In this document: positions 8,092 through 34,772 of the stretch, in pieces | Layout of the letters: every line of letters starts with the position of its first letter | Position numbering within the stretch: the first letter of the stretch is position 1 | Source of the DNA: a virus | Lineage: Duplodnaviria > Heunggongvirae > Uroviricota > Caudoviricetes | IMG/VR virus record: IMGVR_UViG_3300008262_000042 | Location: 803-64,802 of that record | Length of the DNA stretch: 64,000 nucleotides | Strand: one strand, 5' to 3' | Notes under the pieces: model-generated | Database searches by the model: none | Told to the model about the DNA's origin: nothing | Seen by the model: the letters and a program-made list of their open reading frames with translations, nothing else | Position numbers and translations under genes: made by a program

Positions 8092-8355
8092 TTATAACTT
8101 ACTTTCTAATAAAGACTTAAACGCAGTTTTCGATTGTATGCCTGATTGTCGATGAATCTCTAATCCATTTTTATATAATATGACTGTAGGTACGCTCGTA
8201 ATTTTTAATGAAGATACTTCATCGACATTTACATCAACATCTATTTGTTGTAATTGTACATTACTTCCGTAACTAGAACATACTTCATTAACAATGGGTT
8301 TAAAAGCTCTACAAGGGCCACACCATGCTGCTGTTACATATTTTACTAATATCAT
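8092..8355 (-). CDS. thioredoxin
   Basis: WCGPC active-site motif (AAWCGPCRAF) in an 87-aa thioredoxin-sized protein. Confidence 0.85.
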   Translation of the reverse strand: MILVKYVTAAWCGPCRAFKPIVNEVCSSYGSNVQLQQIDVDVNVDEVSSLKITSVPTVILYKNGLEIHRQSGIQSKTAFKSLLESKL

Positions 8356-8359
8356 ATTT

Positions 8360-8392
8360 TTAGATTTAAAAGAAAGCCCAATTAAGGGCTTT
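8360..8392 (-). terminator. terminator-like hairpin
   Basis: Stem aaagccc/gggcttt (8373-8379 / 8386-8392) with loop aattaa. It lies immediately downstream (minus sense) of the 8399..9373 stop, followed by a T-rich stretch. Confidence 0.4.
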
Positions 8393-17887: not shown

Positions 17888-19063
17888 CTAAATTTTTATG
17901 AATTTACTTGTATAATATTCGTCGTCTAATCTAATTAGATTTTTTTCGTAAGTGTCTAAACTTTTAATAGTTATCTTAAATATATCTAATTCGAATTCTC
18001 CAATATCTCCAGACTCTATGATTATGTCAGCTAATTGTTGTATTATTCTAAAACTATCATTTGTTAGTTTATTTGCATCAAATTCAATTACTATATTATT
18101 TTCACTAATAGGATCATTAAATCCTTTTAATAACACTCTTTTACTTAAATCAAACTTTGTATTGCTTTGTTCATTTTCTATGTATGCTATAGTAATAACT
18201 TGCATTGTATCATCTATGTATATTCTATCGCACCACGGTTCAAGTATTTGTAAAGCTTGTAAAGTGCAGTTAGATACAACAAACGCTATATTATATTTAG
18301 TTGTTGATGATCTATTTCCCCATTTTCTAATATAATTACGATTTGATTTAACTTCTATTAGCTTTGTAGTATTAATATATTCTTCTGAAAATCTAGATGT
18401 TTTACTAACGAAATGATAGCAAATTGCATCTAATATAGTTATACATTCTAATCCTAAAAGTTTTAATCTCATTATTAGATCATCATCTTCACAAAACATA
18501 GGATTAAATAAATTATCCATTCCTTTAATGCTTAGTAATAGATTTCTAGATAAACACATAAAAAATGTTATGCCTTGCTCATATTTATTTTCATATGATT
18601 TTTGAGCTTCTTTTGCAAATTCGTAAAAACTACTAAGATTGAAGGTTTCAAGATCAATTCCAAAATCTCTAATAATCTTACCAGGTCTTTCATGGTCTGA
18701 GAAGATCGGTGGTTCAACAGTTGTATACGATATAACTTTATTTACACTTATGTGTTTTATTAGATTCTCTATAAAATTAGGAGCTAATACTATATCATTA
18801 TGTAAATAAACAACATACTCTTTTGTTGAAATCTCTGCAGCTTTATTAAATGTATCTGAAAATGTTCCATACTCTTTAGAATAATAATATTTTAAATAAG
18901 CGTCATTTAGTGAATCTAACCACTCATGTGTACCATCAGTTGATGCATAACTAACAAAACAAATCTCAATCTTTGGATAAAGTGCTCTTGTTGTTTTATA
19001 AAAATGTTTAGTATAGTCTAGATTATTTTTTAATCCAACTAATAATGAAATATTATTTTTCAT
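17888..19063 (-). CDS. glycosyltransferase, GT2-like (391 aa)
   Basis: N-terminal GT-A-like region with YLHNDIVLAP (DxD-like); first gene of the sugar island. Confidence 0.45.
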   Translation of the reverse strand: MKNNISLLVGLKNNLDYTKHFYKTTRALYPKIEICFVSYASTDGTHEWLDSLNDAYLKYYYSKEYGTFSDTFNKAAEISTKEYVVYLHNDIVLAPNFIENLIKHISVNKVISYTTVEPPIFSDHERPGKIIRDFGIDLETFNLSSFYEFAKEAQKSYENKYEQGITFFMCLSRNLLLSIKGMDNLFNPMFCEDDDLIMRLKLLGLECITILDAICYHFVSKTSRFSEEYINTTKLIEVKSNRNYIRKWGNRSSTTKYNIAFVVSNCTLQALQILEPWCDRIYIDDTMQVITIAYIENEQSNTKFDLSKRVLLKGFNDPISENNIVIEFDANKLTNDSFRIIQQLADIIIESGDIGEFELDIFKITIKSLDTYEKNLIRLDDEYYTSKFIKI

Positions 19064-19934
19064 TCTTAATACTTGTTAATAATTTATTATATAATTCAAT
19101 ATGTGAAATAGCAATCTTCTTACTGTCGCATAGCTCTATAATATTCGCAGGTTGATCTACTTCTATATTAAGAATATTTCCATGAATGTCTATTATATAC
19201 ATATAACCTGGAATTCCACAACACCATCCTTCAAGAGTCGTACGACCTAGTAGAATACCGCCTGTAAAGTGCATCTGCTTAACAATAGTTTCAGTATTCC
19301 ATCGCTTATCTAGATACTTTATATTAGGATGATTAAATTGAAATCTACTTTCACTCATTATATATAAATCCCAATCATTTTTAATACATTCATTAGCTAA
19401 GTGAGATATTGCACTAAATCGAATAGGATCTAATACTTCTCCTACAAATATTCCAGAATATCTATCTAGTTTATTTATATATTCTAAATTAAATCTGCTT
19501 TGATCTATTGGATTATATATCAAAGATACTTTACTCTCAGGTATATTATATTGATCTATTAGCATTTTCTTTATAGGCTCTCTTATAGCGATATAGTGAA
19601 AAATATTAGAGTCGATAATTGGATCTTCTGATCTTATTTCTGAATGTATTATACTTACGAGTGGTGTATTTTTAAAATTACTAAGCATATATGAATTAAC
19701 TTGTGGTTGACTTGCCACAATAATATCATATTTTTCATTAGTATCTATATTTGTTAAATCCAATTGTTTAATACCACTTAACTTTAATCTAGTTTGATCT
19801 GCATTATCAATATTACGTAAAGTAAATAACGTAACTTCATGGCCTAAATAATTTAATTCTCTAACTAATTCATAGTGATATAATTCACTTCCTCCTAAAC
19901 CATTTACATTTAAGCAACCAATTAATATCTTCAT
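19053..19934 (-). CDS. glycosyltransferase, GT4/GT-B N-terminal-like (293 aa)
   Basis: MKILIGCLNVNGLGGSELYHYELVREL matches the GT4 N-terminal GGxE pattern. Confidence 0.45.
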   Translation of the reverse strand: MKILIGCLNVNGLGGSELYHYELVRELNYLGHEVTLFTLRNIDNADQTRLKLSGIKQLDLTNIDTNEKYDIIVASQPQVNSYMLSNFKNTPLVSIIHSEIRSEDPIIDSNIFHYIAIREPIKKMLIDQYNIPESKVSLIYNPIDQSRFNLEYINKLDRYSGIFVGEVLDPIRFSAISHLANECIKNDWDLYIMSESRFQFNHPNIKYLDKRWNTETIVKQMHFTGGILLGRTTLEGWCCGIPGYMYIIDIHGNILNIEVDQPANIIELCDSKKIAISHIELYNKLLTSIKNEK

Positions 19935-20704
19935 AATGTCATTTTTTTATATACCTCTAATATACCTTGTTCTAATCCTATATAATCTATATTGTAAGGT
20001 ATAAGTTTATTTGATATATAGTCATCTATTTTAGCATTTTCAACATTTATATGTACTTTATAATCACTTAAATTATTTATTAAATTTGCTATCTCTAATA
20101 GACTAATAGATCTTGAATAAGCACAATCAACATCCTTAAGTAATAAACTTTGGTCATTTTCTATATAATATTCAATGACTTTAATTAAGTCTTTCATATA
20201 GAAAAAAGTCATTTTTTTATTTTGAATATTCATAGATTGTTTACCAATGTATCTTAGTAAATTTGCTCTTATAAATCTTGTATCTAACTCATACTCATTA
20301 AATACACCGAATATTCTTATATTATAAAAACCATCTTTTTGCAAAATAGAATTAGCTATTATTCTTTTACTTATACCATATGGAGATTCTGGACTATTGA
20401 TTTCTGCGCCTGATGCAAGATTAATAAACATTCCATAATTTTCTTTACATTGTAATAGATTATAGTACATTGTTAAATTATCATCAACTACATTCCAATC
20501 ATCTTTCTTAAGTCTACTTCCACCAACTATTGCACAATGTAATATAATATCAAAATATTGGCCTTTAAAATAATCTAATGTTGATTTAGACGATGTTAGA
20601 TCAAATAGATCTCGTGTATGAGCCACTATTTCATATTTGTCTTTTAACGCTAAATATAAGCTATAGCCTATATAACCTCTTGATCCGGTTATTAGTATTC
20701 GCAT
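19931..20704 (-). CDS. NAD(P)-dependent sugar epimerase/reductase (short-chain, RmlD-like)
   Basis: Rossmann N-terminus MRILITGSRGYIGYSLYLAL; ~257 aa, typical of NDP-sugar reductases/epimerases. Confidence 0.65.
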   Translation of the reverse strand: MRILITGSRGYIGYSLYLALKDKYEIVAHTRDLFDLTSSKSTLDYFKGQYFDIILHCAIVGGSRLKKDDWNVVDDNLTMYYNLLQCKENYGMFINLASGAEINSPESPYGISKRIIANSILQKDGFYNIRIFGVFNEYELDTRFIRANLLRYIGKQSMNIQNKKMTFFYMKDLIKVIEYYIENDQSLLLKDVDCAYSRSISLLEIANLINNLSDYKVHINVENAKIDDYISNKLIPYNIDYIGLEQGILEVYKKMTL

Positions 20705-21241
20705 TTATTTTTCTTTTGAATAATCACCGAACTCAACAATAATAGTACTTTTTCCATCTGTTCTATTTAAAGCATATTCGTAACTTGGAACAATATCTTT
20801 TGGTTCATGTAATTCAATAACTTGTATTGTTTTACACATAGATCTAAACGCATCAGAAAAATTACCCTTATGTTGATCTTGTGGATCTACTGGTCTTTCA
20901 CTACCTACTGCTACTCTTATAATTGCTTTTGGAGTGCATCTACCATCTGACATTAGTGAAAATTTATCTAAATGATTGATTATTTGATCTGTACCCATTA
21001 ATAAAAAATTCCATCTAGGTATTATAGAAACTGGTATATATCCATTTAAAGCTAATCCGTTTACTACACCGCATTGTAAATACTCAGCTACTGGAAATTC
21101 CATTTTTTTATTAGGACTAATATGTTCTAATGTATCATATAATCCGGTTCCAGCATATTCAACTGCTTGTCCTATGAATACAACCTTATCATTTAACGAT
21201 AACATAGTCATCGCTTTTTTTAACTCTTCAAAATATTTCAT
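20705..21241 (-). CDS. transketolase-like TPP enzyme, C-terminal (pyrimidine-binding) subunit
   Basis: 178 aa with the transketolase Pyr-domain pattern (FIGQAVEYAGTGLYDTL...EYLQCGVVNGLALNG); paired with the N-terminal subunit gene immediately upstream. Confidence 0.55.
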   Translation of the reverse strand: MKYFEELKKAMTMLSLNDKVVFIGQAVEYAGTGLYDTLEHISPNKKMEFPVAEYLQCGVVNGLALNGYIPVSIIPRWNFLLMGTDQIINHLDKFSLMSDGRCTPKAIIRVAVGSERPVDPQDQHKGNFSDAFRSMCKTIQVIELHEPKDIVPSYEYALNRTDGKSTIIVEFGDYSKEK

Positions 21242-21253
21242 AATTTGTATAAT

Positions 21254-21904
21254 TTAAAATTGAACTCGTTGACCAGCTCCAGCATGCGGATATTTTTTAT
21301 TTTCATATTCATAATAAACTAAATTTGATTGTTTATATATGCAATTATTTTTTATATCATTTATAAATCGATCTTTATCATCTATAAAATAGGGTGTAGA
21401 TCTTTTCCATACATCATCAGTTGGAGTTAATACAGATAATTTATTTGATTCTACTACGAACGTTATTGGTAGATTGTAGTTTCTAGAATATTTATATGCT
21501 TCATGAAAATTACCTGTCTCAGCAGACATATCACCTATCCAACACCAAACATGGCCGGTACTGCCTCTTAATTTATTTCCCAAAGCTATTCCAGTAGCTA
21601 TTGATGGAATTCCTCCTACAATAGAGCTACATATAAATTTATATTCTGGGAGTGTTTGAATCATGGATTTGCCCTTAATGATTTCATTCTTTAGAAGATC
21701 TGCAGGTATACCTTTTAATAAAGCTTGATAGTGATTTCTCCAAGTACAACATACCCAATCATTAGTAATATCTACACTATTAAATACGCTAACTATCTTT
21801 TCCTCATTTCCACTATATAAATGTATTGGAGCTTTTATTTTTTTATTATTAAATAGACTAGCTATTTCATTTTCAAATTCAATTAATTGTTCTATTGTTA
21901 CCAT
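21254..21904 (-). CDS. transketolase-like TPP enzyme, N-terminal (TPP-binding) subunit
   Basis: GHVWCWIGDMSAETGNFHEAYKYSRNYNLPITFVVESNKLSV resembles the TPP-binding GDG...N region of split transketolases. Confidence 0.55.
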   Translation of the reverse strand: MVTIEQLIEFENEIASLFNNKKIKAPIHLYSGNEEKIVSVFNSVDITNDWVCCTWRNHYQALLKGIPADLLKNEIIKGKSMIQTLPEYKFICSSIVGGIPSIATGIALGNKLRGSTGHVWCWIGDMSAETGNFHEAYKYSRNYNLPITFVVESNKLSVLTPTDDVWKRSTPYFIDDKDRFINDIKNNCIYKQSNLVYYEYENKKYPHAGAGQRVQF

Positions 21905-22854
21905 ATAAATTTGTTATTGTAGTAATTTACTATATTTTTTATTTCAATGTTAAATTTCTTTTTTGGTGTCCATCCTAAAGATCTAAGCTTATTATCATTT
22001 AATGCATATCGTATATCTTGACCTGGTCTACTATATGAAAAGTCTATGTAGTTTAAATATGACTCATGCTCTGGTATTCCGTAAAATTCAATTACTTGCT
22101 TAATAGTGTCTATGTTTTGTTGCTCAAATCCTCCAGATATATTATAAATTTCTCCAATAGTTCCCTTATCAATAATTGTTATAACTGCGTGAGCTGTATC
22201 TTCTGCGTGTAGCCAAGTTCTATAAGGTTCTCCATTATTATGTAAAGGTATTCTTCTCCCTAAATTCAAAAATTTAACAGCTTTAGGTATTAATTTTTCA
22301 ACATATTGCCCTATTCCATAATTATTTGTAGGTCTTAGTATTATATACGGTATATTATGTGTTCTACCCCAAGCCATTATTAGCATATCTGCAGCTGCTT
22401 TTGTAGCTGAATATGGATTTGATGGCTTAAGCATATCTATTTCTATATGCTCTCCTAATCCTATATCTCCATAAACTTCATCTGTACTAAAATGTATCAA
22501 TGTTGGTTTTTTTGAATTCTCAGCTCTATAATTCTTTATTAGCTCTAAAAGATTATGTACACCATCTATATTAGATTTTACAAACTCAGTACTACTTACA
22601 ATACTATTTCCAACATGAGTTTCTGCTGCTGTATTAATAACATAATCACAATCATATAAAAACGTAAGATCATTAATATCACAGTGTACAAAAGAAAAGT
22701 TTTTATATTTTTTAAACTCCTCTAATAGATATTTATTAGCCGCATATGTTATTTTATCTACGCCTTTCACATACCAACCTTTTTCTAAACATATTCTAGT
22801 TATGTAAGATCCTATAAATCCCAAACATCCAGTAATATATACTACTTTTATCAT
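21898..22854 (-). CDS. NDP-sugar 4,6-dehydratase (RmlB-like)
   Basis: N-terminal ITGCLGFIGSYITR (GxxGxxG) and catalytic YSATKAAADMLIMAW (YxxxK); 318 aa is typical of dTDP-glucose 4,6-dehydratases. Confidence 0.75.
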   Translation of the reverse strand: MIKVVYITGCLGFIGSYITRICLEKGWYVKGVDKITYAANKYLLEEFKKYKNFSFVHCDINDLTFLYDCDYVINTAAETHVGNSIVSSTEFVKSNIDGVHNLLELIKNYRAENSKKPTLIHFSTDEVYGDIGLGEHIEIDMLKPSNPYSATKAAADMLIMAWGRTHNIPYIILRPTNNYGIGQYVEKLIPKAVKFLNLGRRIPLHNNGEPYRTWLHAEDTAHAVITIIDKGTIGEIYNISGGFEQQNIDTIKQVIEFYGIPEHESYLNYIDFSYSRPGQDIRYALNDNKLRSLGWTPKKKFNIEIKNIVNYYNNKFIW

Positions 22855-22870
22855 TTTATAAAATATTAAT

Positions 22871-23599
22871 TTATATGTATTGATTAAAATGGGTTTTTAA
22901 TACCTCTTCTCTTTCATAATTAGTAATTCCAGTTAAATGAGCAATAAAACTTTCTTTAGTCCATTCATTTATTATTAAATTTTGTGCATTAGGTCCAGTT
23001 CGAACTGGATCATTTAACCACGTTTTAGTTTTTGTTAAACAAAGAGGAACGCTATTTAAGTATTTATGCTCTAAAATTTTAAAACAATTTACTATATCGT
23101 TATGTTGATGTATTATATTTAGTGTAATTTGTTCAGCCATAATATTATGTAAATAATATTGACTAGTTTCATAAAATTTATTGAATAAATCATTTACATC
23201 TTCTGTACGACGAATAATAAAATTCCCTGTGCTAAATCCATTTTTTCCAGCTGGACCTCCTTCATAGCATAACCAATCATATGAACTATAAAAAGTATGC
23301 TTACTATCTATCATATCATCTATAGTAATATTTGGATTTGTTATTATTGAATCTCCATCTAACCACATAACAACATCATATTGTTGTAATAATGTAAAAC
23401 ACTCCCAAGCTCTAACAAATCCTATATAAGATGTGCCTATATTTTTTTTAGTAAATCCACATTGTTCTATTTCATTAAAATGTCGTTTTATAATTAAGTC
23501 ATAACTATGTTGTTTACAATATTTTAATTTTGAATTTAATGTTAAATCTAAAACATTCCACATTGATTGATCAGCTCCAGTTACTACAACTTTATTCAT
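22871..23599 (-). CDS. putative nucleotide-diphospho-sugar transferase-like protein (242 aa)
   Basis: WLDGDSII DxD-like motif; weak. Confidence 0.3.
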   Translation of the reverse strand: MNKVVVTGADQSMWNVLDLTLNSKLKYCKQHSYDLIIKRHFNEIEQCGFTKKNIGTSYIGFVRAWECFTLLQQYDVVMWLDGDSIITNPNITIDDMIDSKHTFYSSYDWLCYEGGPAGKNGFSTGNFIIRRTEDVNDLFNKFYETSQYYLHNIMAEQITLNIIHQHNDIVNCFKILEHKYLNSVPLCLTKTKTWLNDPVRTGPNAQNLIINEWTKESFIAHLTGITNYEREEVLKTHFNQYI

Positions 23600-25242
23600 A
23601 TTAAATCTTTTAAATATATGTTATATAGTTTATCGTTATTATAAGCATACTTTAAGGCTACTTCAAAATTATGTTTAACATATATTAACATACTTTCATA
23701 GGTTTCTTCATTTAGATTATTAACTATGTTAATTAATTCATCTATTGTATTAAATGTAATAATACCGTTTGTATTAAAAAAATTACCAATATTTGTGCAA
23801 CCTCTATATATTGGGATAGTTCCAGTTAAAAAGCAATCTAATATTTTTTCTGTAAAATAATTATCTGAAATGCCATTCTCAATTGCAATTGAAAATCTAT
23901 AATCTTTTAATGCTTCTATTTTTCCTGTTACTTCATGATACCCAACGCCTCTAATATCTATTGTAGAACCTAGTTCTTTTAAAGAATTAACACACGCAAC
24001 TCTAAATCTATGGCCATCAGTAATAGTTTTATTAGAAGTTATAAAAGATACTAATTTTGTTTTTTCGTAAATATTATATAAACCTTCATCTGATAAAACT
24101 GGATATTCTAAGGAGTGCACATTCTTATTTAAGACAACCTCATATCCTCCATTTCTAAAAACAGCATTAGGTAACTCTAGTAATTGAGGATCATAGGTTA
24201 GTATACGATCAAATTTTTCATAATTTTTAAATACAATTTCATATACGCTATTATGTTCTAATAAGTGCCTAGGTTCGTGTATATCTGCAACTATTTTTCC
24301 TCGTTTAATAGGAATTTCTCCATTAATATACTTGATTATTTCTGTATCTTGAATTAAGGTAACATCAAATTCTCCATTTAATTGATTGTACACATAAGAA
24401 AATAATGTTGGAATCGTATTTCTTTCTCTATATTCTCCAAATACATTTACTAATGGAAGTTTATCTCCTGATAGTCCTTCTTTATATTTTTTTCTATTTC
24501 TAATTTCAACTTCAAACTTATGATTCTCTATTGATTGTCTTTCTTGAGATCTTACTTGGTTTTTTGGTGTCATATTATAAACGCATGTGAAGAAATCAGG
24601 TACGCCTATTTTATTTTTTGGACACATCTCTTGATAGATACAACCCCAAGCGACATCTATAGCATGCCAATAATAATCGCCTGTAATAAGCGATTTTAAA
24701 TCTATCTTATTTATACTTTTAAATAAAAATTTACGGTATGTTCTTAGATGACTCGCTTTAAACATATCTCTCCTATAGAGTTTATGATCATGTACAAAAT
24801 TTTCATGAGGTACACCATATACTGTAGATTCTATAAGTCTATCAGATCCATCATAACATACGAATCTACCATAAGTCATCCAATAATCATAGTCATTATA
24901 TAGTTTATTTAAGTTCGAAAGAGTGTTCTCATCAAAAAACCAATCGTCACCATCTAAATGCACTAATATATCATCATCGCTATCAGACGCAAAATCTATA
25001 TATTCAACATAATTATAAGCTGCTCCTTTATTTTCATCATTTCTTATTAACGTAAATCGACTATCATGCTCTATTATTGATTTTACTTTTTCATACGTGC
25101 CATCAATCGACGCATCATCTATATATAACACTTTAAAATTGTCATATGTTTGATTTATTATACTGGCTAAATTATATTCTACCCAATCTTCGTTATTATA
25201 TGAAGGCGTAATTATTACAAACCTATTTTGTTTTTCCATCAA
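23596..25242 (-). CDS. two-domain glycosyltransferase (GT2 N-terminal domain + second GT-like domain)
   Basis: Classic GT2 N-terminus FVIITPSYNNEDWVEYNLASIINQTYDNFKVLYIDDASIDGT; a long C-terminal extension carries a second transferase-like domain. Confidence 0.6.
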   Translation of the reverse strand: MMEKQNRFVIITPSYNNEDWVEYNLASIINQTYDNFKVLYIDDASIDGTYEKVKSIIEHDSRFTLIRNDENKGAAYNYVEYIDFASDSDDDILVHLDGDDWFFDENTLSNLNKLYNDYDYWMTYGRFVCYDGSDRLIESTVYGVPHENFVHDHKLYRRDMFKASHLRTYRKFLFKSINKIDLKSLITGDYYWHAIDVAWGCIYQEMCPKNKIGVPDFFTCVYNMTPKNQVRSQERQSIENHKFEVEIRNRKKYKEGLSGDKLPLVNVFGEYRERNTIPTLFSYVYNQLNGEFDVTLIQDTEIIKYINGEIPIKRGKIVADIHEPRHLLEHNSVYEIVFKNYEKFDRILTYDPQLLELPNAVFRNGGYEVVLNKNVHSLEYPVLSDEGLYNIYEKTKLVSFITSNKTITDGHRFRVACVNSLKELGSTIDIRGVGYHEVTGKIEALKDYRFSIAIENGISDNYFTEKILDCFLTGTIPIYRGCTNIGNFFNTNGIITFNTIDELINIVNNLNEETYESMLIYVKHNFEVALKYAYNNDKLYNIYLKDLI

Positions 25243-26551
25243 TAAATTTGTTTAATACAACTTCTATATAATCAATCTTTTCTTTATCTATTACTGGAGA
25301 TGTGCCTAGAAAGAATGTATCGGTTGTAACCTTTCTTGCGATTGGATATTTTTCTATTACTTCTTTTGGATCCATCAAACCCGCATACGCTGGTTGCAAC
25401 ATTATATTTCCAGCAAAATACGGTCTTGTTTGTATTTTATTAGATTCAAAAAATTTACAAATATCTGATCTTTTAAATGGAGCACCATCTTTTATAGTAA
25501 TTGGAAAAGCAAACCAATCTACATCTGCGCCTAATTGAGCTTCATGTAAGTGGAAATATTCATTATATTTAGAAAAAACATTATATAGGTTTTTATAGTT
25601 ATTTCTTCTTTTTATACCTATTTCCTCTAATTTTTCCATTTGCACTAATCCAATAGAGGCCTGTAATTCTATGGGTTTTAGATTATACCCTATTTCTTCA
25701 TATACATACTTATGATCAAATAATTCGTCTGGTATACTTGGCACCCAATTATTAAATCTGCAACCACATGCTCCATTTTCTAATAGATTCTGTTTACCAA
25801 TACAAAAACAACCTCTTCCCCATTCTCTAAAACTTCTTATAACTCTTTCTAGTATAGGATCGTCTACTGCTACAAATCCGCCTTCTCCCATAGTTATATG
25901 ATGCGCTGGATAGAAAGAACAACTTGCCATTTTACCGAAAGATCCTAAAGGTTTCCCTTCATAAGTTGAACCAAGTGCATCACAACAATCTTCAAGTAAT
26001 ACTAATTTGTATTTTTCTACAATCTCCATTAACCTTTTCATATTCGGAGGATTACCAAGAACATGCGCAAAAGTTATTATTTTTACATCTGGATTTTCTA
26101 TGCATGCTTGCTCTACTTGATCTAAATCTAAATTAAGTGTATCTAATTCTATGTCTACAAATATTGGCTTAAATCCTACTTGCAATATTGGATTTATAGT
26201 TGTTGGAAATCCAGCTATAGGCGTAATTACTTTGGTGCCTTTAGGTAAATTAGCATATCTTTTTGAAGTCATTGCTAACATCATCAATAGATTTGCGCTA
26301 GATCCACTATTTGTTAGTAAACCAAAATTTTTACCAAGTTTTTTAGGAAATTTTCTTTCAAACTTTGTAGCTTCAGCACCTAATACTAGCCACTCGCTTA
26401 ATAGAGTTTTAACAGCTACTATATACTCTGCTGAATCAAAATATGGACCTGCATATTGAACCCAATCTTCTCCAGCTTTCCATGATTTTTTGCTGTGTTT
26501 ATCTTTTATATATTGATCAACTAGTGATACTATTTCTTTTTCCGTAACCAT
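25223..26551 (-). CDS. DegT/DnrJ/EryC1-family PLP/PMP enzyme, E1 (DdhC/RfbH)-like NDP-4-keto-6-deoxyhexose 3-dehydrase
   Basis: Aspartate-aminotransferase-fold sugar-aminotransferase architecture (GSSANLLMM..., DALGSTYEGKPLGSFG). The position of the PLP lysine reads SFYPAHHITMGEGG (His instead of Lys). A Cys-rich segment GCFCIGKQNLLENGACGCRF follows. Confidence 0.65.
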   Translation of the reverse strand: MVTEKEIVSLVDQYIKDKHSKKSWKAGEDWVQYAGPYFDSAEYIVAVKTLLSEWLVLGAEATKFERKFPKKLGKNFGLLTNSGSSANLLMMLAMTSKRYANLPKGTKVITPIAGFPTTINPILQVGFKPIFVDIELDTLNLDLDQVEQACIENPDVKIITFAHVLGNPPNMKRLMEIVEKYKLVLLEDCCDALGSTYEGKPLGSFGKMASCSFYPAHHITMGEGGFVAVDDPILERVIRSFREWGRGCFCIGKQNLLENGACGCRFNNWVPSIPDELFDHKYVYEEIGYNLKPIELQASIGLVQMEKLEEIGIKRRNNYKNLYNVFSKYNEYFHLHEAQLGADVDWFAFPITIKDGAPFKRSDICKFFESNKIQTRPYFAGNIMLQPAYAGLMDPKEVIEKYPIARKVTTDTFFLGTSPVIDKEKIDYIEVVLNKFIDGKTK

Positions 26552-26558
26552 TTTTTAT

Positions 26559-26807
26559 TTATAAACTATTTAGATCTAAATTAGAGTTATTCATCTTAAT
26601 TATCAAATCCACAAGAGTGCTAATTTGTGTACTCTTTATAACATTATCGCAATTTATATTATTCCAATAATCATTGTATTTATCTCTTGGAATAGCATTC
26701 CAAACTTTACTTATTGGATTATAATGAAATATCCAATTAAATAAACAATCATTTTCTTCTGAATTTGGATATACATTTTCGTAATCCTGATAAGTATTTT
26801 GTTTCAT
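26559..26807 (-). CDS. hypothetical protein (82 aa)
   Basis: Minus-strand ORF. Confidence 0.3.
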   Translation of the reverse strand: MKQNTYQDYENVYPNSEENDCLFNWIFHYNPISKVWNAIPRDKYNDYWNNINCDNVIKSTQISTLVDLIIKMNNSNLDLNSL

Positions 26808-26810
26808 GCT

Positions 26811-27446
26811 TTATATTTTACTGTAAAAATTATTTTGTTGCTCTTGTTTAGCTATGTCTTTATTATGATGTAAACACCAATCTAAACTATCTGTAGGAAA
26901 CTCTGCTATATGAGAATAACCGACTATTCGTTCATGCACTTTTCCTTCCCATTTTATATTAACTTTATTTCTAACTATCCTACTTTGATAATCTGGCCAG
27001 TTAATTAGTCCATCAGGATCGACTCTCCAATTCCATACTTTTATATGCTCTTGTGTTAGTCCTTTAACCGTATTTGCTCTTGGTACCATGAATAGATCAA
27101 CTGGATTGCTATCTAATACTTGATGTAGATAGTACAACATATTCTCAGATAAAGTTTCGTCAGCATCTATGAAGTAAATATAATCTTTTTTACAATTACT
27201 TTTTAAATTATTTTTAAAGTCTGCGAAATTTTTATTTAGCTTATATGTTATATATCTTACTCTACTATCAGAATCAATAAGCTGTTCAATATACTTCTTT
27301 ATCGATAATGCATCGCTATCTGTACATTCATCTTGTTGAATTACAATCTCATCATTTTCTTTTATACAAGGTAACAACTGTTTAATAAGTCTTTTGAATT
27401 CTTTGTATTCGTTACAGCAAGTTATAGCGTAAGATATAGTTATCAT
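26811..27446 (-). CDS. glycosyltransferase family 2-like (211 aa)
   Basis: N-terminal ITISYAITCCNEYKEFKRLIKQL and DEIVIQQDE resemble the GT-A fold. Confidence 0.5.
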   Translation of the reverse strand: MITISYAITCCNEYKEFKRLIKQLLPCIKENDEIVIQQDECTDSDALSIKKYIEQLIDSDSRVRYITYKLNKNFADFKNNLKSNCKKDYIYFIDADETLSENMLYYLHQVLDSNPVDLFMVPRANTVKGLTQEHIKVWNWRVDPDGLINWPDYQSRIVRNKVNIKWEGKVHERIVGYSHIAEFPTDSLDWCLHHNKDIAKQEQQNNFYSKI

Positions 27447-27455
27447 TTTGATGAT

Positions 27456-27938
27456 TTATATTAAATCTAAATATTCTAATGCGCTTACATAATCTGTTCC
27501 AAAATATTGCATACTACTTGGATCTGATTTATGAGATTTGTTTTTAAATACTGGTTTCTTCTTTTCTTGTTTTGTTAATGGTATATTTTTAATTGCACAC
27601 CATTGAGCATCTTCTTTACAAGTTCCATTCATAAAAATAGTGCCTCTATCTAGTATATTAACTACGGTCGGGTACCACACTCTTCCTTCAGAATCTATTT
27701 TCTTAAGATCTTTATATAGTTCTGGCATCTCTGCTTCGAATGTTTCAAAATCAAATTCCCCTTCTCTTGCTAAATCGTTTGATTGATGTCCACAACCTAA
27801 ACACATATATGCATTGTGAAATTCATTCATAGCTATAGAGTAGCAAGCGCCTTTTTCTCCGCATAGAGGACAATCTATTAGGTTGTCTTTTACTTTATCC
27901 ATGTAACACCTCCTTTGTAGTAGTAGTAGTAGTTCCAT
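27456..27938 (-). CDS. zinc-ribbon protein (160 aa)
   Basis: CPLCGEKGAC...CLGCGH Cys pairs. Confidence 0.35.
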   Translation of the reverse strand: MELLLLLQRRCYMDKVKDNLIDCPLCGEKGACYSIAMNEFHNAYMCLGCGHQSNDLAREGEFDFETFEAEMPELYKDLKKIDSEGRVWYPTVVNILDRGTIFMNGTCKEDAQWCAIKNIPLTKQEKKKPVFKNKSHKSDPSSMQYFGTDYVSALEYLDLI

Positions 27939-28152
27939 TTGAATCTGTAGTAGTGTACCAAAAAGGCTGTCCAGGTGGGACAGTCGGAGAATATGGACTA
28001 GTCCATGGATTAACTCCTATAGGAGATGGTGCACAAGTACTGTCTACCTTGTCTACTTCTTTTATTGCCTTTTCAATATCTATTTTCATTTGGCTATCTG
28101 TTTGTGCTGCTAGATAACCTTTTAGCCAATATACAAATTGTTCGTGTGTCAT
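27895..28152 (-). CDS. hypothetical Pro/Thr-rich protein (85 aa)
   Basis: Contains a TTTTTT run encoded by a (gta)n microsatellite; overlaps the downstream ORF by 44 nt. Confidence 0.3.
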   Translation of the reverse strand: MTHEQFVYWLKGYLAAQTDSQMKIDIEKAIKEVDKVDSTCAPSPIGVNPWTSPYSPTVPPGQPFWYTTTDSNGTTTTTTKEVLHG

Positions 28153-28153
28153 G

Positions 28154-29467
28154 TTATTCTACTTTTGTAAGTTTTGGTAATTCTATTTTTTTCAATTTAG
28201 GTAACTGTAATTGAACAGGTTTTGGAAAAGTCGATAAATACTCTGAAAGTTTATCTTTCATTTTTTCCATTGAAAAGTTTGTCTTTGCATAATAGGCTTG
28301 TCTATTTGCTAAATCAGACTTATACTTATCATAGTTGTTATAAACTTGTTCTAAGGCCGTTTGTGCAGCTTTGGTATTAACTTTAAACCATTGCGATTCT
28401 GGAATTAACATATTTTCTGCGACTGCTGATCTATGGATATTTTGTAATTCCCCTGGTAACATTACGCAAAACTCTTCATTTAAGAAATCTATATGTCCTG
28501 ACCAATTTGATGCTATGATAGGTTTTTTACATACTGAGAATTCTAATAGAGGTCGGCCATAACCTTCACCATGACCAAAGTATATCATTGATTTTACTTT
28601 TGGGTGGTTATATAGATTGTTAATCTCTTCTTCAGATATTTCACCATGTAATAGATAGATATTTGGTAAATCTTTAGAGTTGACAGTATTTCTTATTTTA
28701 TCTATCATTTCTAAGAGGTCCTCTCTGTCTATGATGCTATTAGCTACTTTTGTAGTTTTTAATATTAAAGCAGGCTTATTTTTTTTATTTTTAAAAGTCT
28801 CTAAAAATATTTTTATAGTTCCAGATACATTCTTTCTATCTTCTCCAAAATCTCCTTGCAACCAATGACCAACAAATAAATAACAAAAATCTTCTTTAAC
28901 TTGACTTATTGTTTTAACTAATTTGGTATTTGTTAATTCTTTTTCTGGTATATGGAAATACTTATTAAGATCTACACCTTCAAAAAGAACTTCTATAGGT
29001 TTTTCAAGTTTAATCTCTCTTCTAACATTACCGTGATTATCTTTTTCTTGGAATTGAGAACTATTAAATACATTCTTTGCATGCTCTGAAGATACTAAAG
29101 TTAAATTCATTCTATTAACTCCGTCTATCCAAGTTGAATGTGCTATAGTAGTCTCAATACCCGCAGTTACACCAACATTCATTAACTTTCCAATTGGTTG
29201 GAATTCATTAGGTACTGTGATTTGAAACCAATAATCTGGTTGTACTGTTAGTTGATTATTTGGTAAAATAAGATCTTTTAAAAATCCCCATTCTTTTGCA
29301 TGATTTTCTATATATCCCCAACTTGTAGCTCCCCATCTTTGAGAAAGTATTTTTACATCCCAATCATCTTTTTTAAGTTCATATAGAGCCTTTACAAAAT
29401 CTCTAGCTCTTGATCCATATCCACTATTGGTATCGATAGGACAACTAATTACGCATAACGGTTTCAT
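28154..29467 (-). CDS. glycosyltransferase, GT4/GT-B-like (437 aa)
   Basis: C-terminal EGYGRPLLEFSVCKKPIIAS matches the GT4 E-x7-E donor-binding motif. Confidence 0.55.
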   Translation of the reverse strand: MKPLCVISCPIDTNSGYGSRARDFVKALYELKKDDWDVKILSQRWGATSWGYIENHAKEWGFLKDLILPNNQLTVQPDYWFQITVPNEFQPIGKLMNVGVTAGIETTIAHSTWIDGVNRMNLTLVSSEHAKNVFNSSQFQEKDNHGNVRREIKLEKPIEVLFEGVDLNKYFHIPEKELTNTKLVKTISQVKEDFCYLFVGHWLQGDFGEDRKNVSGTIKIFLETFKNKKNKPALILKTTKVANSIIDREDLLEMIDKIRNTVNSKDLPNIYLLHGEISEEEINNLYNHPKVKSMIYFGHGEGYGRPLLEFSVCKKPIIASNWSGHIDFLNEEFCVMLPGELQNIHRSAVAENMLIPESQWFKVNTKAAQTALEQVYNNYDKYKSDLANRQAYYAKTNFSMEKMKDKLSEYLSTFPKPVQLQLPKLKKIELPKLTKVE

Positions 29468-29468
29468 A

Positions 29469-30920
29469 TTAATATACTAATTTGTGTGTTATTTTTTTTC
29501 TTGGTAATTTTTCTATTTTTATGAATTCGAAGTCCTCTTTTGGCTTCCATTCACTAAAAGTTTTTTCTATAGATGATATGACATTTTTACTCATATTTGT
29601 ACTACTCATCATAGACTCATCTGATGTTGCCCAGTCTCTTCCTTTCATGCCTCTATGTATTCTATCTTCTGGAGTTAGGTTATATACATTCTCTATAGCA
29701 TTAGCCACATCTCTAAAATCGCATCTATCATCGAATATGTATGGCGTAGGTATAGAACCAACTATTGACATATTAGTAGGAAATACTGGCATTGCCCATA
29801 CTCCATGTTGTCTATATTTACCAAAATGATTAGAAGGGAAATCTTTTGTAAAATCTACCCAATTTCCTTTTTCATCTTCAAATCTAAGTTGATCTTGCAT
29901 ACCGCCTGTAACATTAGCAATGATCATAGTGCCAGCCATCATAGATTCTGTTAATGATAATCCCCAACCTTCATTAGATGATATTAACGCAGTAACGTCT
30001 GCGATATTATACATGTAATTTAATATATTAGTAGGTACCGCGCCTTGTTCAAATTTTACTTTTTGATATTCAGGATCACATAATAATTCAACTACTGCAT
30101 TAAGATTAGTTCCATTCTCATCCATAGCTTGCGTATGCAATAATAATGTACACTTCTTAGCTTTCTCTTTTCCTATGCTATCACAGAATAGTGCATATGC
30201 TGCGATAAGATCAGAAGTACACTTTCTACGAATATTTCTAGCATTATAGAAAACTACAAACTCTGGTTGATCTTCACCGAATAAGTTCTTTTTATATGAT
30301 TGTAAACCTTCATACTCCTCTTTCATAAATTCATTTATGGGGTAGAATAGTCTATCATTGATACCATGAGGAACGTAAGTAATAACTTTGTCTTTTGCTT
30401 TTTCTCCTAAAACTAATTCGTGGATATTTTTAGTTTGTTTAGATATTGACATTAATAAGTCACATGATTCATAATATGGCTTATTATATAAAGGAGCAGG
30501 ATAGTCATCCCAGATTGATAAGTATAGTATAGGTATTTTTTTTCTAATTTCATTTTCCATTTGAAATAACCACACCCAATATCTAGGATCAGTAAATAAC
30601 ATGATCGCATCGGGTTTTTCAATTTCTAGTATCTGTCTAACAATCTCTGGTGTTCCATATCCATTGCATGGATAAAGCGTCACAGAAGAGTCTGGGATAT
30701 TCATGGTCTTATTCGTATCTTCTGATAGATCAAACCTTTTGCCGTAATCTGGATGATTGATAGCAGCTCCTAAATTAACCCAATTGAATCTGTGAGAAGT
30801 GCCTATAACTATTTCTCTTGACATTGTAGCGATACCACTTGTCATTCGAAGATCGTCACTCATTAGTAAGATCTTCTTTCTTTTTGATTTTTCAATATAA
30901 CCTTCTGGTAAACTTTGCAT
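29469..30920 (-). CDS. glycosyltransferase, GT4/GT-B-like (483 aa)
   Basis: NEGWGLSLTESMMAGTMIIA matches the GT4 E-x7-E motif. Confidence 0.55.
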   Translation of the reverse strand: MQSLPEGYIEKSKRKKILLMSDDLRMTSGIATMSREIVIGTSHRFNWVNLGAAINHPDYGKRFDLSEDTNKTMNIPDSSVTLYPCNGYGTPEIVRQILEIEKPDAIMLFTDPRYWVWLFQMENEIRKKIPILYLSIWDDYPAPLYNKPYYESCDLLMSISKQTKNIHELVLGEKAKDKVITYVPHGINDRLFYPINEFMKEEYEGLQSYKKNLFGEDQPEFVVFYNARNIRRKCTSDLIAAYALFCDSIGKEKAKKCTLLLHTQAMDENGTNLNAVVELLCDPEYQKVKFEQGAVPTNILNYMYNIADVTALISSNEGWGLSLTESMMAGTMIIANVTGGMQDQLRFEDEKGNWVDFTKDFPSNHFGKYRQHGVWAMPVFPTNMSIVGSIPTPYIFDDRCDFRDVANAIENVYNLTPEDRIHRGMKGRDWATSDESMMSSTNMSKNVISSIEKTFSEWKPKEDFEFIKIEKLPRKKITHKLVY

Positions 30921-32823: not shown

Positions 32824-33268
32824 TATTTAATTTTTTAATATGGTTATATAAATCTACTAAATTTCCATCGAATTCATTCATTATAGTTTCTAGTGCTGTT
32901 ACATTTATTTTAAAAATCTTACAGAACTCGCTTTTTAATTTTTTTAGAGTGGTTGTTTCCTCTTTTTCAAAATCTTCTATAAGCTTTCTTCGTCTTTCCA
33001 TAAATAGACATCGAACTTCGTGTTCTTGATCAGCATTTTTACAGAGTTTTAATTTATCTTGCATTAAGTAATATTCATACTCGGCTTGATAATAGTAGTC
33101 TGATACATCAAAATCACCGCGGGCAATTCTTTCATATAATGGGTACTTATTACTTAGCACTTCTCTAGACTTATATCTTCTATGCCAATAGTATTGGTTA
33201 TATGAAACAGGTGTAAGCTTTGATAACTGCTCTTCTAAAAACTCTCTCGATAGTTTTGGTAAACTCAT
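32816..33268 (-). CDS. hypothetical protein (150 aa)
   Basis: Minus-strand ORF. Confidence 0.35.
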   Translation of the reverse strand: MSLPKLSREFLEEQLSKLTPVSYNQYYWHRRYKSREVLSNKYPLYERIARGDFDVSDYYYQAEYEYYLMQDKLKLCKNADQEHEVRCLFMERRRKLIEDFEKEETTTLKKLKSEFCKIFKINVTALETIMNEFDGNLVDLYNHIKKLNNG

Positions 33269-33933
33269 TTATCATTCCATTTGATGCCTTTATTAAAATG
33301 TCTTTCGTATATATGTAAATTAGTTATTAACCAATTCATATCTCCTACTTCATAACCAGTCTTTTCTGATACTAATTCCATAAGCTTTGAAAACGTATAG
33401 AAGTCATTACAAAATCCAAACCAAAGATCTATACTTCTAGCAAATACGCTTAATTCTAATTTATTATCTTTAACATAGAAATTAAGAACCATATTACATG
33501 GCGTATCATATTGGTATCTATCTAGTTCATCTAAATCATAATGGACAACTACTGCGCGTCTAGTATTTGGATCTTTTTTAAGAAGATCTATAACACGCTC
33601 TAGTTGATTATTTTTATTCCAAAAATATCCATAATTACTATTTACTTCTGTAGTACCATCTACCATCATATTTTTCCATATCTTTGCACGTTCAGCTATT
33701 TCGCTAGCATCTCTATCACCTTTAAGATACCATTCCCACTCATAATCTGCATACTCTTGTTTAAAGTTCCTTTTTGGATTTGTTATAACTCGCTCTAATA
33801 CATTCTCAACTCCAAAGCTTATATTAAATAGTGCTTTAGTACCAGCAAAGTTTGGCTTATCATAGCGATCTTCTATATACTCGTAAAAAGCTTGGAAAGC
33901 ATGATTTGCATTTTCAAATAACATATTGTTCAA
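33265..33933 (-). CDS. ThyA-fold pyrimidine hydroxymethylase, T4 gp42-like deoxycytidylate hydroxymethylase
   Basis: 222 aa, shorter than thymidylate synthase. Blocks EWEWY, KIWKNMMVDGTTEVNSNYGYFW, DPNTRRAVVVHY, TPCNMVLNFY (nucleophile Cys), ARSIDLWFGFCND and NLHIYERHF are collinear with T4 gp42 as recalled. Asp sits at the position that is Asn in thymidylate synthases. Confidence 0.65.
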   Translation of the reverse strand: MNNMLFENANHAFQAFYEYIEDRYDKPNFAGTKALFNISFGVENVLERVITNPKRNFKQEYADYEWEWYLKGDRDASEIAERAKIWKNMMVDGTTEVNSNYGYFWNKNNQLERVIDLLKKDPNTRRAVVVHYDLDELDRYQYDTPCNMVLNFYVKDNKLELSVFARSIDLWFGFCNDFYTFSKLMELVSEKTGYEVGDMNWLITNLHIYERHFNKGIKWNDK

Positions 33934-34399
33934 TTTTTATGAATTTTTTTAATAAATCTATTCCTGATGTATCTCTATATTGATCTAAATATACAACTCT
34001 TTTTATTCCTGATTGTAATATATATTTCGAGCATTCAATGCATGGAGATAATGTTACATATAATGTTGAATTTTGCACAGCATTTCCTGTCTTTGCAGCT
34101 TTTATCACCGCATTCATTTCAGCATGGAGTACTATACTTTTAGTAATTGTGCTCATTCCAGTTTCATGTAACTCTTCGCAACAATTATCCATTCCAGATG
34201 GAGTACCATTGTAACCTATACTAATAACATTACCATCTTTCTCTATCACTGCGCCTACTTTACTTCTTTTACAATGCGATAATGAAGATACTGCAATGGC
34301 CATAGTCATATATACCATGTCAAGTCTTCTTTGTTTAGAAGACTCCTGTACTTCCAAATCCTCCGGAGCCTCTTTCTGTATTTTTTTCTGGTAATTCAT
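33914..34399 (-). CDS. dCMP deaminase
   Basis: Zinc-binding HAEMNAV and PCIECSK (PCxxC) motifs of the cytidine/dCMP deaminase family. The real start is probably at an internal Met (MVYMTMA), which reduces overlap with the dUTPase. Confidence 0.85.
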   Translation of the reverse strand: MNYQKKIQKEAPEDLEVQESSKQRRLDMVYMTMAIAVSSLSHCKRSKVGAVIEKDGNVISIGYNGTPSGMDNCCEELHETGMSTITKSIVLHAEMNAVIKAAKTGNAVQNSTLYVTLSPCIECSKYILQSGIKRVVYLDQYRDTSGIDLLKKFIKIEQYVI

Positions 34400-34772
34400 C
34401 TACTAATTCTATGTTTTCGAAGTTAATTGGAATCAATACGAATTGCATGATTTTTTGTTCTGGTTGGATAGTTTGTGGTTGATTAGATACATTGAACACA
34501 TGTATATGAATCTCTCCAGTATAATCTGGGTCTACAAGCTGAGCACCATATATGAGGCCTTGTTTTGTTGAAACTCCGCTTTTATTCATAGCGACTAGCC
34601 CATATCCATTAGGAACATCAGCTTTGATACCGCTTGGGATCAACACAGACTCACCTGGCTGCAGTGTTTTTGGTTCTTGAATATAATCTTTAGGCAAATA
34701 AAAGTCTATGCCAGCGCTGTCGGGTGTGCCTCTGGAAGGTGTCTTTACTTCTCTGATTTTTTTAATTTTCAT
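34335..34772 (-). CDS. dut: dUTP diphosphatase (trimeric dUTPase)
   Basis: Motifs AGIDF, GLIYGAQLVDPDYTGEI and C-terminal RGSGGFGSTG. Confidence 0.9.
   Translation of the reverse strand: MKIKKIREVKTPSRGTPDSAGIDFYLPKDYIQEPKTLQPGESVLIPSGIKADVPNGYGLVAMNKSGVSTKQGLIYGAQLVDPDYTGEIHIHVFNVSNQPQTIQPEQKIMQFVLIPINFENIELVDELPEKNTERGSGGFGSTGVF

Follow-up and report, generated by a model that had tools for sequence, protein, structure and literature searches.

A phage-encoded E1-type sugar 3-dehydrase in a variable glycan island, with a predicted route to a branched 3,6-dideoxy sugar

Three described enzymes are among the closest comparisons for this study: E1 (AscC/DdhC/RfbH), the CDP-6-deoxy-L-threo-D-glycero-4-hexulose 3-dehydrase of Yersinia; SpnQ, the TDP-4-keto-2,6-dideoxyglucose 3-dehydrase of the spinosyn forosamine pathway; and ColD, a GDP-4-keto-6-deoxymannose 3-dehydratase (PDB 2GMS). 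According to a recent review, E1 and SpnQ hold a four-cysteine [2Fe-2S] cluster and ColD has none, and a histidine replaces the catalytic lysine. The same review describes the electron supply: E1 is reduced by E3, and general ferredoxin/flavodoxin reductase pairs serve SpnQ. We analyzed a gene for an E1-like protein in a 64,000-nucleotide stretch of viral DNA (Caudoviricetes; IMG/VR record IMGVR_UViG_3300008262_000042, positions 803 to 64,802), and we refer to this whole stretch as the window. The gene lies at 25223..26551 on the minus strand, within a 13-kb island of sugar genes in which every gene is on the minus strand.

The product of E1, CDP-4-keto-3,6-dideoxyglucose, is the acceptor for YerE, ErwE, and related enzymes, and two routes are known for placing two carbons on C-4 of a 4-keto deoxysugar. 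In the first, YerE, a single-chain flavoprotein that depends on thiamine diphosphate (ThDP), acts on CDP-3,6-dideoxy-4-keto-glucose on the way to yersiniose A. In the second, pairs of proteins that resemble the E1 component of pyruvate dehydrogenase (PDH) transfer a pyruvate-derived two-carbon unit onto keto sugars; these are AviB1/AviB2, Pau11/Pau12 (the same as Plm8/Plm9), and KbDH-alpha/beta, known together as alphaKADH2 enzymes. In both routes, the next step is ketoreduction of the acetyl branch. The characterized alpha/beta branching enzymes are reported only from natural-product clusters of actinomycetes. Yersiniose and erwiniose, which are C-branched 3,6-dideoxy sugars, are rare determinants of O-antigens, and related branched sugars are found in actinomycete antibiotics.

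The open reading frame (ORF) at 25223..26551 is full-length, starts with ATG, and encodes 442 amino acids. The protein matches the Pfam family DegT_DnrJ_EryC1 (PF01041, E=9e-77). It passes the cutoff of the NCBIfam equivalog model for RfbH (NF011936, 458.6 bits; cutoff 423), and it is far under the cutoff of every NCBIfam model for sugar aminotransferases. Its best matches in PDB are two structures of E1 from Yersinia pseudotuberculosis (3BCX and 3BB8; E=1e-97, residues 5-433), with 40% identity and 331 bits, versus 30% identity and 174 bits for ColD (E=3e-50). The nearest 3-dehydratase in PDB other than E1 or ColD (9WVY) scored 161 bits, and true aminotransferases matched at E=1e-30 or weaker. 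The match to E1 is far beyond chance, and by these sequence comparisons the protein is an E1/RfbH-type (AscC/DdhC) NDP-4-keto-6-deoxyhexose 3-dehydrase (NDP, nucleoside diphosphate), which is expected to depend on pyridoxamine 5'-phosphate (PMP) and a [2Fe-2S] cluster. Which nucleotide this E1 prefers is not evident from its sequence. Purifying selection acts on the gene: against viral homologs, dN/dS was 0.07-0.18, with synonymous sites near saturation.

To place the catalytic residues, we derived the sequence of E1 from its alignment with the phage protein and checked its residue numbering against the PDB sequence. Where 3BCX reads AHH, 3BB8 reads AKH, so 3BB8 is the H220K mutant, and this fixes His217 of the phage protein as the equivalent of His220 of E1. 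In E1, cysteines are at 192, 193, 251, 253, 257, and 261, and D194, Y217, H220, and F345 are in place. Four of these cysteines (C193, C251, C253, and C261) form the pattern C-X57-C-X1-C-X7-C, which we take to be the [2Fe-2S] motif of E1 as formulated by Agnihotri 2004 and which is consistent with the PDB sequence.

We then aligned the phage protein with E1, ColD, and six metagenomic homologs, using MAFFT. His217 (codon 25901..25903; residues 212-225 read SFYPAHHITMGEGG) is invariant in this alignment and stands opposite His220 of E1 and His188 of ColD. Four cysteines stand opposite the four E1 ligands: C190 (codon 25982-25984) aligns with C193, and the loop C248-X1-C250-X11-C262 (25766..25810; residues 247-264 read GCFCIGKQNLLENGACGC) aligns with C251/C253/C261. 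The entire loop is a gap in ColD. Yersinia E1, the phage protein, and 65 homologs from viruses gave us a larger set of 67 unique sequences, and H217, H218, C190, D191, Y214, C248, C250, C262, and F347 are invariant in all of them. The spacer from C190 to C248 is exactly 57 residues in every sequence. The spacer from C250 to C262 is 11 residues in 55 of the sequences, 12 in another 11, and 7 in Yersinia E1 alone; the longer X11 loop is also present in a distant copy from the cyanophage S-H68. C264 is kept in just 36 of the 67 sequences and is therefore not a ligand. We predict that C190, C248, C250, and C262 are the ligands of a [2Fe-2S] cluster. D191, Y214, and F347 match D194, Y217, and F345 of E1, which mutagenesis reportedly identified as residues of the dehydrase state.

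A preliminary description of this DNA, made from the letters alone, had proposed a DegT/DnrJ/EryC1 architecture, a histidine in place of the lysine that binds pyridoxal 5'-phosphate (PLP), and a cysteine cluster reminiscent of the [2Fe-2S] site of E1. The Pfam match and the full-length match to E1 bear out the first of these, and the alignment that the description suggested supports the other two: there is no lysine opposite His220 and His188, and the cysteines fall on the E1 ligands. The description also spoke of a cysteine-rich insertion. The cluster is real, but it is better described as the Fe-S loop that is specific to E1 and absent from ColD, and it exceeds the loop of Yersinia E1 by merely four residues. 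The last cysteine of the CGC pair (C264), which had been included in the cluster, does not belong to it.

Could the protein act mainly as a 4-aminotransferase in vivo? It would then use glutamate and PLP, as in a side activity of SpnQ, without any reductase, and would form a 4-amino-4,6-dideoxy sugar. SpnQ does transaminate when its reductase is absent, according to the review, and PHROGs files the phage protein, along with other viral E1 copies, in a generic “aminotransferase” family. Also, in the nearest cultured relative that we identified by searching with the PolA protein (Flavobacterium phage vB_FspM_immuto, genus Immutovirus, 160 kb; PolA 53% identical), the syntenic slot is occupied by a WecE-type aminotransferase (NC_055915.1 53026-54225; L090:13027-14226 in our set of loci), followed by a methyltransferase and PglD-like/acetyltransferase-like genes. 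What the immuto slot implies, in our view, is that the island is a replaceable sugar cassette that starts with an enzyme of the DegT family and lies behind a conserved GT-B/GT-B/GT2 backbone (GT, glycosyltransferase). In DegT/WecE-type aminotransferases, the Schiff-base lysine lies in an S-x-x-x-K region, and the phage protein and all of its homologs have histidine there. The match of D191/Y214/F347 to residues that are said to mark the dehydrase state also speaks for a dehydrase. Furthermore, the ThDP enzymes that co-occur with this gene (see below) require a 4-keto acceptor and not a 4-amino sugar. Finally, the review reports no transamination by wild-type E1 or ColD under such conditions, and the H220K mutant of E1 is non-catalytic. 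We consider a primary role in transamination to be very unlikely.

If the protein is a 3-dehydrase of the E1 type, then it should need a source of electrons. The preliminary description suggested a search for an E3-type reductase elsewhere in the genome. We scanned all six frames of the 64-kb window for motifs, and these scans, which are crude, found no plant-type or adrenodoxin-type ferredoxin, ferredoxin reductase, E3, flavodoxin, Rieske protein, or 4Fe-4S protein. The sole redox match was a thioredoxin (8092-8391), which presumably serves the class II ribonucleotide reductase. Neither a plant-type ferredoxin nor E3 was found in 80 related flanks. Motif scans also found no nucleotidyltransferase in the window, which is part of a genome of about 170 kb; one relative does encode a nucleotidyltransferase. 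Because no E3 is encoded nearby, the electrons would most likely come from ferredoxin/flavodoxin reductase pairs of the host, in the manner of SpnQ. We view SpnQ as the best functional analogy for the electron supply: it is an Fe-S and PMP enzyme of a dTDP-sugar pathway and has no dedicated E3, although it acts on a 2,6-dideoxy substrate and we compared it with the phage enzyme by description.

Two other kinds of proteins came up as potential electron donors. In some relatives, ORFs of about 327 amino acids lie directly downstream of the E1 gene and contain an RxYS motif like that of ferredoxin reductases, but these turned out either to have a 4,6-dehydratase/epimerase fold or to have no Pfam match and no ferredoxin motif, so we rejected them as candidates for E3. 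Four relatives encode an LdpA-like protein of 385-390 amino acids with two 4Fe-4S motifs (L023:13106-14266, L069:18848-20008, L075:15478-16635, and L089:14554-15726). This protein, which is not encoded in the window, could be a phage-borne electron donor for E1.

The lack of a gene for E3, ferredoxin, or flavodoxin in the window would also be expected if the enzyme worked like ColD, that is, by dehydration and hydrolysis of an enamine without a reductase, with glutamate regenerating PMP and with a cysteine loop that is structural or vestigial. Independence from a redox partner would benefit a phage, and ColD shares the fold and the catalytic histidine with the phage protein and matches it with high significance. 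Yet ColD, which regenerates PMP by transamination, lacks the whole cysteine loop, and the phage protein retains all of it. The four cysteines and the X57 spacer are invariant across the 65 viral homologs, which are 64-86% identical within the clade and extend down to 42% identity, while C264 drifts freely. The bit score for E1 is nearly twice that for ColD (331 versus 174), and SpnQ illustrates that an Fe-S dehydrase can work without a dedicated E3. We judge ColD-like chemistry to be quite improbable, and we return to the E1-type reaction below.

A dehydratase that could supply the substrate is encoded at 21898..22854 (318 amino acids). It scored 292.8 bits against TIGR01181 (under the cutoff for that model), versus 61 bits against TIGR02622, which describes the CDP type. 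Its ten best matches in PDB are all dTDP-glucose 4,6-dehydratases, and its translation contains the motifs STDEVYG and YSATK (TDE and YxxxK). By sequence, then, it is a true NDP-glucose 4,6-dehydratase of the RmlB (dTDP) type and would provide the 4-keto-6-deoxy sugar. The type of this partner suggests that the nucleotide carrier may not be CDP. The dehydratase had been described as adjacent to E1; in fact, its gene is 2.4 kb downstream of the E1 gene, and two glycosyltransferase genes separate them within one operon-like block. The phage enzyme thus resembles Yersinia E1 in its full-length homology, the histidine for lysine, the C-X57-C-X1-C...C pattern, the D/Y/F residues, and the match to the RfbH model, and it differs in having X11 instead of X7, in its RmlB-type partner, in being encoded by a phage, and in that neither E3 (AscD) nor a cytidylyltransferase is found in the window.

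Right after the dehydratase gene are two short genes that encode a pair of PDH-E1-like proteins. The alpha ORF (21254..21904, 216 amino acids) matches PF00676 (E=2.6e-16) and TIGR03182 (E=6.8e-23), its matches to PDH E1-alpha structures in PDB span the region that binds ThDP and Mg, and the GD-x27-N motif (GDM...x27...N) is kept. The beta ORF (20705..21241, 178 amino acids) matches NF006667 (E=9.6e-12) and, in PDB, the pyrimidine-binding domain of 1IK6 and 1UM9_B. The glutamate of its FPVAE sequence aligns with a glutamate of the solved E1-beta chain and is probably the one that activates the cofactor. The C-terminal domain (Transketolase_C in Pfam) is absent from the beta ORF. The alpha family has about 1,950 homologs, and the 120 that were listed have 208-222 amino acids, so the short alpha subunit is not an artefact of truncation. 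In phrog_34187, a fused form with 405 positions and no assigned function, the N-terminal half matches the alpha ORF and the C-terminal half matches the beta ORF. The pair is wedged between the genes for the 4,6-dehydratase and a short-chain dehydrogenase/reductase (SDR), with ORFs that overlap or abut.

As with the alphaKADH2 enzymes, the phage has alpha and beta subunits side by side among deoxysugar genes, and both are two-subunit PDH-E1-like ThDP enzymes. The comparison is by description, and the lengths differ: Pau11 and Pau12 have 325 and 345 amino acids and come from an actinomycete cluster, while the phage subunits have 216 and 178, with a beta subunit that lacks the C-terminal domain and with relatives in phrog_34187. 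By analogy to these enzymes, we predict that the pair attaches a two-carbon branch, using pyruvate. The SDR (19931..20704, 257 amino acids; PF01370, E=8.5e-13), for which we found no relative in PDB, is predicted to be a ketoreductase for the branch or for C-4. The overall logic is that of the yersiniose A pathway (DdhA-D, YerE, and YerF) and its erwiniose and JanthE relatives, in which a dehydratase and E1 provide a 4-keto acceptor, a ThDP enzyme adds the branch at C-4, and a reductase acts last. Unlike the yersiniose A pathway, the window has a split PDH-E1-like pair instead of the YerE flavoprotein and a dehydratase of the dTDP type, and it has no equivalents of ddhA or ddhD.

Genes for mini alpha subunits also occur outside of these phages. 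A search of genome contigs with the mini alpha subunit identified one locus only, in a single-cell assembly of Pelagibacteraceae (SAR11-type; L091:9998-11128), where the alpha/beta pair lies in a glycan island without E1 and has as neighbors a GHMP kinase, a split transketolase, and radical SAM enzymes.

Related viruses allowed us to compare islands. The exact E1 protein is found on nine metagenome contigs with identical gene order, and protein clusters at 81-90% identity number more than 120. IMG/VR contains 176 viral contigs with a relative at 64-86% identity, and several of these contigs are 160-197 kb long. Sister phages share an island backbone (PD-(D/E)XK nuclease - GT-B - GT-B - small ORF - GT2 - E1; GT, glycosyltransferase), and the cassette downstream of E1 varies. 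To quantify co-occurrence, we used the 59 viral loci in which 8 kb or more of sequence follows E1; these contigs are related, so the counts are not independent. The RmlB-like dehydratase has an ortholog in 49 of the 59 loci. A ThDP enzyme is present in 38 (YerE/JanthE-type in 32, the alpha/beta pair in 10, and both in 4), and the other 21 have none in the downstream flank that was examined. The SDR257 family follows the ThDP enzymes (23/38 loci with a ThDP enzyme versus 2/21 without). Overall, the pattern is coherent: E1 and the dehydratase form a constant pair, next to which ThDP enzymes of two unrelated architectures are exchanged for one another.

One YerE-like subtype occurs strictly with a DmpF-like acetaldehyde dehydrogenase (14/18 loci versus 0/41). 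This subtype matches JanthE (PDB 8RPH) with 578 bits, versus 233 bits for the next match, and it shares the unusual CDG motif of JanthE. In one island that also contains E1, the JanthE-type ThDP lyase is directly upstream of DmpF-like and DmpG-like (4-hydroxy-2-oxovalerate aldolase) genes (L007:17947-21314); the lyase is also present in L018, L021, L034, L042, L043, and L062-L066. The 4-hydroxy-2-oxo acids are products of DmpG-type or HpcH-type aldolases. JanthE and ErwE accept 4-hydroxy-2-oxo acids, and the physiological substrates of JanthE are reported as unknown. The gene context suggests that JanthE-type enzymes use 4-hydroxy-2-oxovalerate as the donor and an NDP-4-keto-3,6-dideoxyhexose as the acceptor.

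A pairing of E1 with an RmlB-type dehydratase recurs in unrelated phages, as illustrated by Synechococcus phage S-H68, which is T4-like (MK016663.1 21673-38671; L009). Its E1 homolog is 42% identical, has the X11 loop, and lies in a separate sugar island with genes for a dTDP-glucose 4,6-dehydratase, a 3,5-epimerase, a small cytidylyltransferase, and GT11 and GT25 glycosyltransferases.

The preliminary description had predicted a 3,6-dideoxyhexose-type product. A plain 3,6-dideoxyhexose is probably not what is made. The cassette also includes an SDR and the alpha/beta ThDP enzyme, which makes a C-4-branched derivative more likely. Alternatively, E1 could act as we propose and the end product could still be plain (of the paratose, abequose, or tyvelose type), with the ThDP pair unrelated to it. 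The SDR could then be a simple C-4 ketoreductase, and the 21 loci with no ThDP enzyme in the flank, as well as the mini pair without E1 in the SAR11-type island, fit this explanation. It does not account for the position of the alpha and beta genes between the dehydratase and the SDR, for the exchange of two ThDP architectures beside E1 in sister phages, or for an SDR family that tracks the presence of ThDP enzymes, and the product of E1 is the acceptor for every characterized YerE-like enzyme. We regard a plain product as unlikely.

We propose the following pathway to a branched sugar. The RmlB-like dehydratase (21898-22854) would convert NDP-glucose from the host to NDP-4-keto-6-deoxy-D-glucose, which would form a Schiff base (ketimine) with PMP on E1. 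His217 would abstract the C4' proton of PMP and the 3-OH would be expelled, and the resulting glucoseen intermediate would be reduced by two single electrons that pass through the [2Fe-2S] cluster on C190/C248/C250/C262. The product of E1 would be NDP-4-keto-3,6-dideoxyglucose. The mini ThDP enzyme would decarboxylate pyruvate and place an acetyl (C2) branch on C-4 of this 4-keto sugar. Reduction of this branch to 1-hydroxyethyl by the SDR would yield a sugar like yersiniose, and the soluble glycosyltransferases of the island, of which there are about eight, would incorporate it into a glycan, most likely on virion proteins.

Taken jointly, we give a probability of roughly 0.7 to the reading that this is a functional 3-dehydrase of the E1 type which receives electrons from the host, that the ThDP enzyme and the SDR carry out the branching, and that a yersiniose-like sugar ends up in a glycan. 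What our data show directly is that the protein belongs to the E1 family, that its key residues are conserved, that the gene is under purifying selection, and that it is syntenic and co-occurs with the partner genes; the Fe-S cluster itself, the source of electrons, the nucleotide carrier, the chemistry of branching, and the target of the glycan are inferred. Several points count against it. With no E3, ferredoxin, flavodoxin, or nucleotidyltransferase in the window, two necessary inputs must come from elsewhere. E1 scores as the CDP-type RfbH and the dehydratase scores as the dTDP type, so the two do not match. Relative to the only E1 with a characterized structure, the Fe-S loop has four additional residues (X11 versus X7), and the mini pair falls short of characterized branching enzymes by about one third to one half of their length. 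In avilamycin and paulomycin biosynthesis, branching is proposed to occur after glycosyl transfer and not on the NDP-sugar. The 21 of 59 loci without a ThDP enzyme and the relatedness of the contigs that we counted also belong on this side.

As to the target of the glycan, no protein of the island has a convincing transmembrane segment. The lack of membrane components, together with the many glycosyltransferases, favors glycosylation of virion proteins, for which mycobacteriophages offer a precedent. The glycan might instead modify the host surface. A minority possibility is that the glycan is attached to DNA: a divergent ThyA-like gene and genes for dCMP deaminase and dUTPase are 7-9 kb away. 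In sister phages, though, the ThyA-like gene is not syntenic with the island, and about eight glycosyltransferases seem to be too many for a DNA glycan. The ThyA-like protein itself (33265-33933, minus strand, 222 amino acids) is under every NCBIfam cutoff for ThyA, and its gene adjoins the dCMP deaminase and dUTPase genes (33914-34399 and 34335-34772). If this protein is a hydroxymethylase of deoxynucleoside monophosphates, then modified DNA bases would be implied.

More broadly, a widespread clade of Flavobacterium-type myophages (relatives of Immutovirus) from fresh and marine waters might share a hypervariable glycan island that is anchored by E1. By swapping ThDP modules, including the mini alpha/beta pair, they might produce a range of 3,6-dideoxy sugars with C-branches of the yersiniose, erwiniose, or JanthE type and decorate their virions, or possibly their DNA, with them. 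We offer this generalization tentatively, with the odds somewhat against it. If it is true, these would be the first branched-chain sugars made by viruses, and the gene context would suggest what JanthE-type enzymes use as substrates in nature. Tailed phages that infect abundant aquatic Bacteroidota would then be producers of their own exotic sugars and would vary them one module at a time, much as in O-antigen loci, which would point to strong selection on the phage-made glycan (as a virion shield, as a change of the host surface, or as protection of DNA). Two kinds of enzymes would be gained: a compact variant of E1 that appears to be independent of a reductase, and a family of mini two-subunit ThDP carboligases (about 2,000 members in metagenomes) that would be candidate biocatalysts for tertiary alcohols.

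The E1 enzyme itself adds one member to a well-known family, and what makes this case interesting is the branched-sugar context in which a phage carries it. Viral copies of E1 have already been labeled in GenBank (Synechococcus phage S-H68) and at JGI, there are several cyanophage records, of which one is annotated as this enzyme, and lists of auxiliary metabolic genes from viromes name ascC/ddhC/rfbH. So, the earlier remark that such an enzyme is unusual for a virus is right for characterized biochemistry but not for sequence data, given these records and lists and the 176 IMG/VR contigs. What departs from known systems is the combination of a phage, an X11/X12 loop, a dTDP-type dehydratase, no E3 in the window, and a mini two-subunit ThDP enzyme. 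We found no description of a viral pathway for branched-chain or 3,6-dideoxy sugars in the searchable literature. The term “3-dehydrase” does not occur in a 2022 review of giant-virus glycans, the only dideoxy sugars in the passages of it that we consulted are 2,6- and 4,6-dideoxy (amino) sugars, and a 2025 review of ThDP enzymes names viruses as unexplored.

The rest of the island, all on the minus strand, is mostly glycosyltransferases. Upstream of E1, the conserved backbone includes a pair of GT-B glycosyltransferases (28154..30920): a protein of 483 amino acids (29469-30920; PF00534, phrog_2170) and one of 437 amino acids (28154-29467; weak match to PF00534, phrog_2170). The orthologs of both in immuto are annotated as glycosyltransferases. 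These are followed by two small ORFs (27895-28152 and 27456-27938), by a conserved GT2 glycosyltransferase (26811..27446; PF00535, E=6.8e-14) that is present in 72 of 89 loci, and by an ORF of 82 amino acids (26559-26807) between the GT2 and E1 genes. The first of the small ORFs (27895-28152, 85 amino acids) has a threonine-rich C-terminal tail, TTTDSNGTTTTTTKE, and few relatives have kept it; the ORF may be spurious, or its product may be a substrate for glycosylation. Downstream of E1 are a fusion of GT2 and GT10-C domains (23596..25242, 548 amino acids; PF00535, E=1.3e-22, and PF00852, E=4.7e-11) and a GT34-like glycosyltransferase (22871..23599, 242 amino acids; PF05637, E=9.3e-9). Beyond the SDR, a GT4 glycosyltransferase (19053-19934; PF13439, E=2.6e-12) and a GT2 glycosyltransferase (17888-19063; PF00535, E=6.6e-12) close the island.

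The window as a whole, from what we regard as a large phage of the Flavobacterium type, has about 30% GC, and nearly all of its genes are on the minus strand. It encodes GroEL, a family A DNA polymerase, the class II ribonucleotide reductase, a DnaB-like helicase, thioredoxin, dUTPase, dCMP deaminase, the ThyA-like protein, an M15 peptidase, and large tail proteins. A megablast search with 8.5 kb of the island found no match among 50,697 phage records. This clade lacks a close cultured representative.

Several other genes in the window, again on the minus strand, deserve brief mention. An ORF of 295 amino acids (35366-36253) has no match in Pfam or NCBIfam; its sole match is to phrog_7093 (threonine dehydratase, E=7e-22), and it may be a divergent enzyme with a PLP fold. 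Two ORFs (2051-2695 and 2843-4489) have N-terminal segments that resemble signal peptides and only a weak match to an Fn3-associated domain, and they may be secreted or surface proteins; we considered sorting domains of the type IX secretion system in these two ORFs and dropped the idea for want of support from Pfam. Finally, the window encodes an SPFH/Band 7 membrane-scaffold protein (8399-9373), and its phage GroEL (37668-39290) has a counterpart in immuto.

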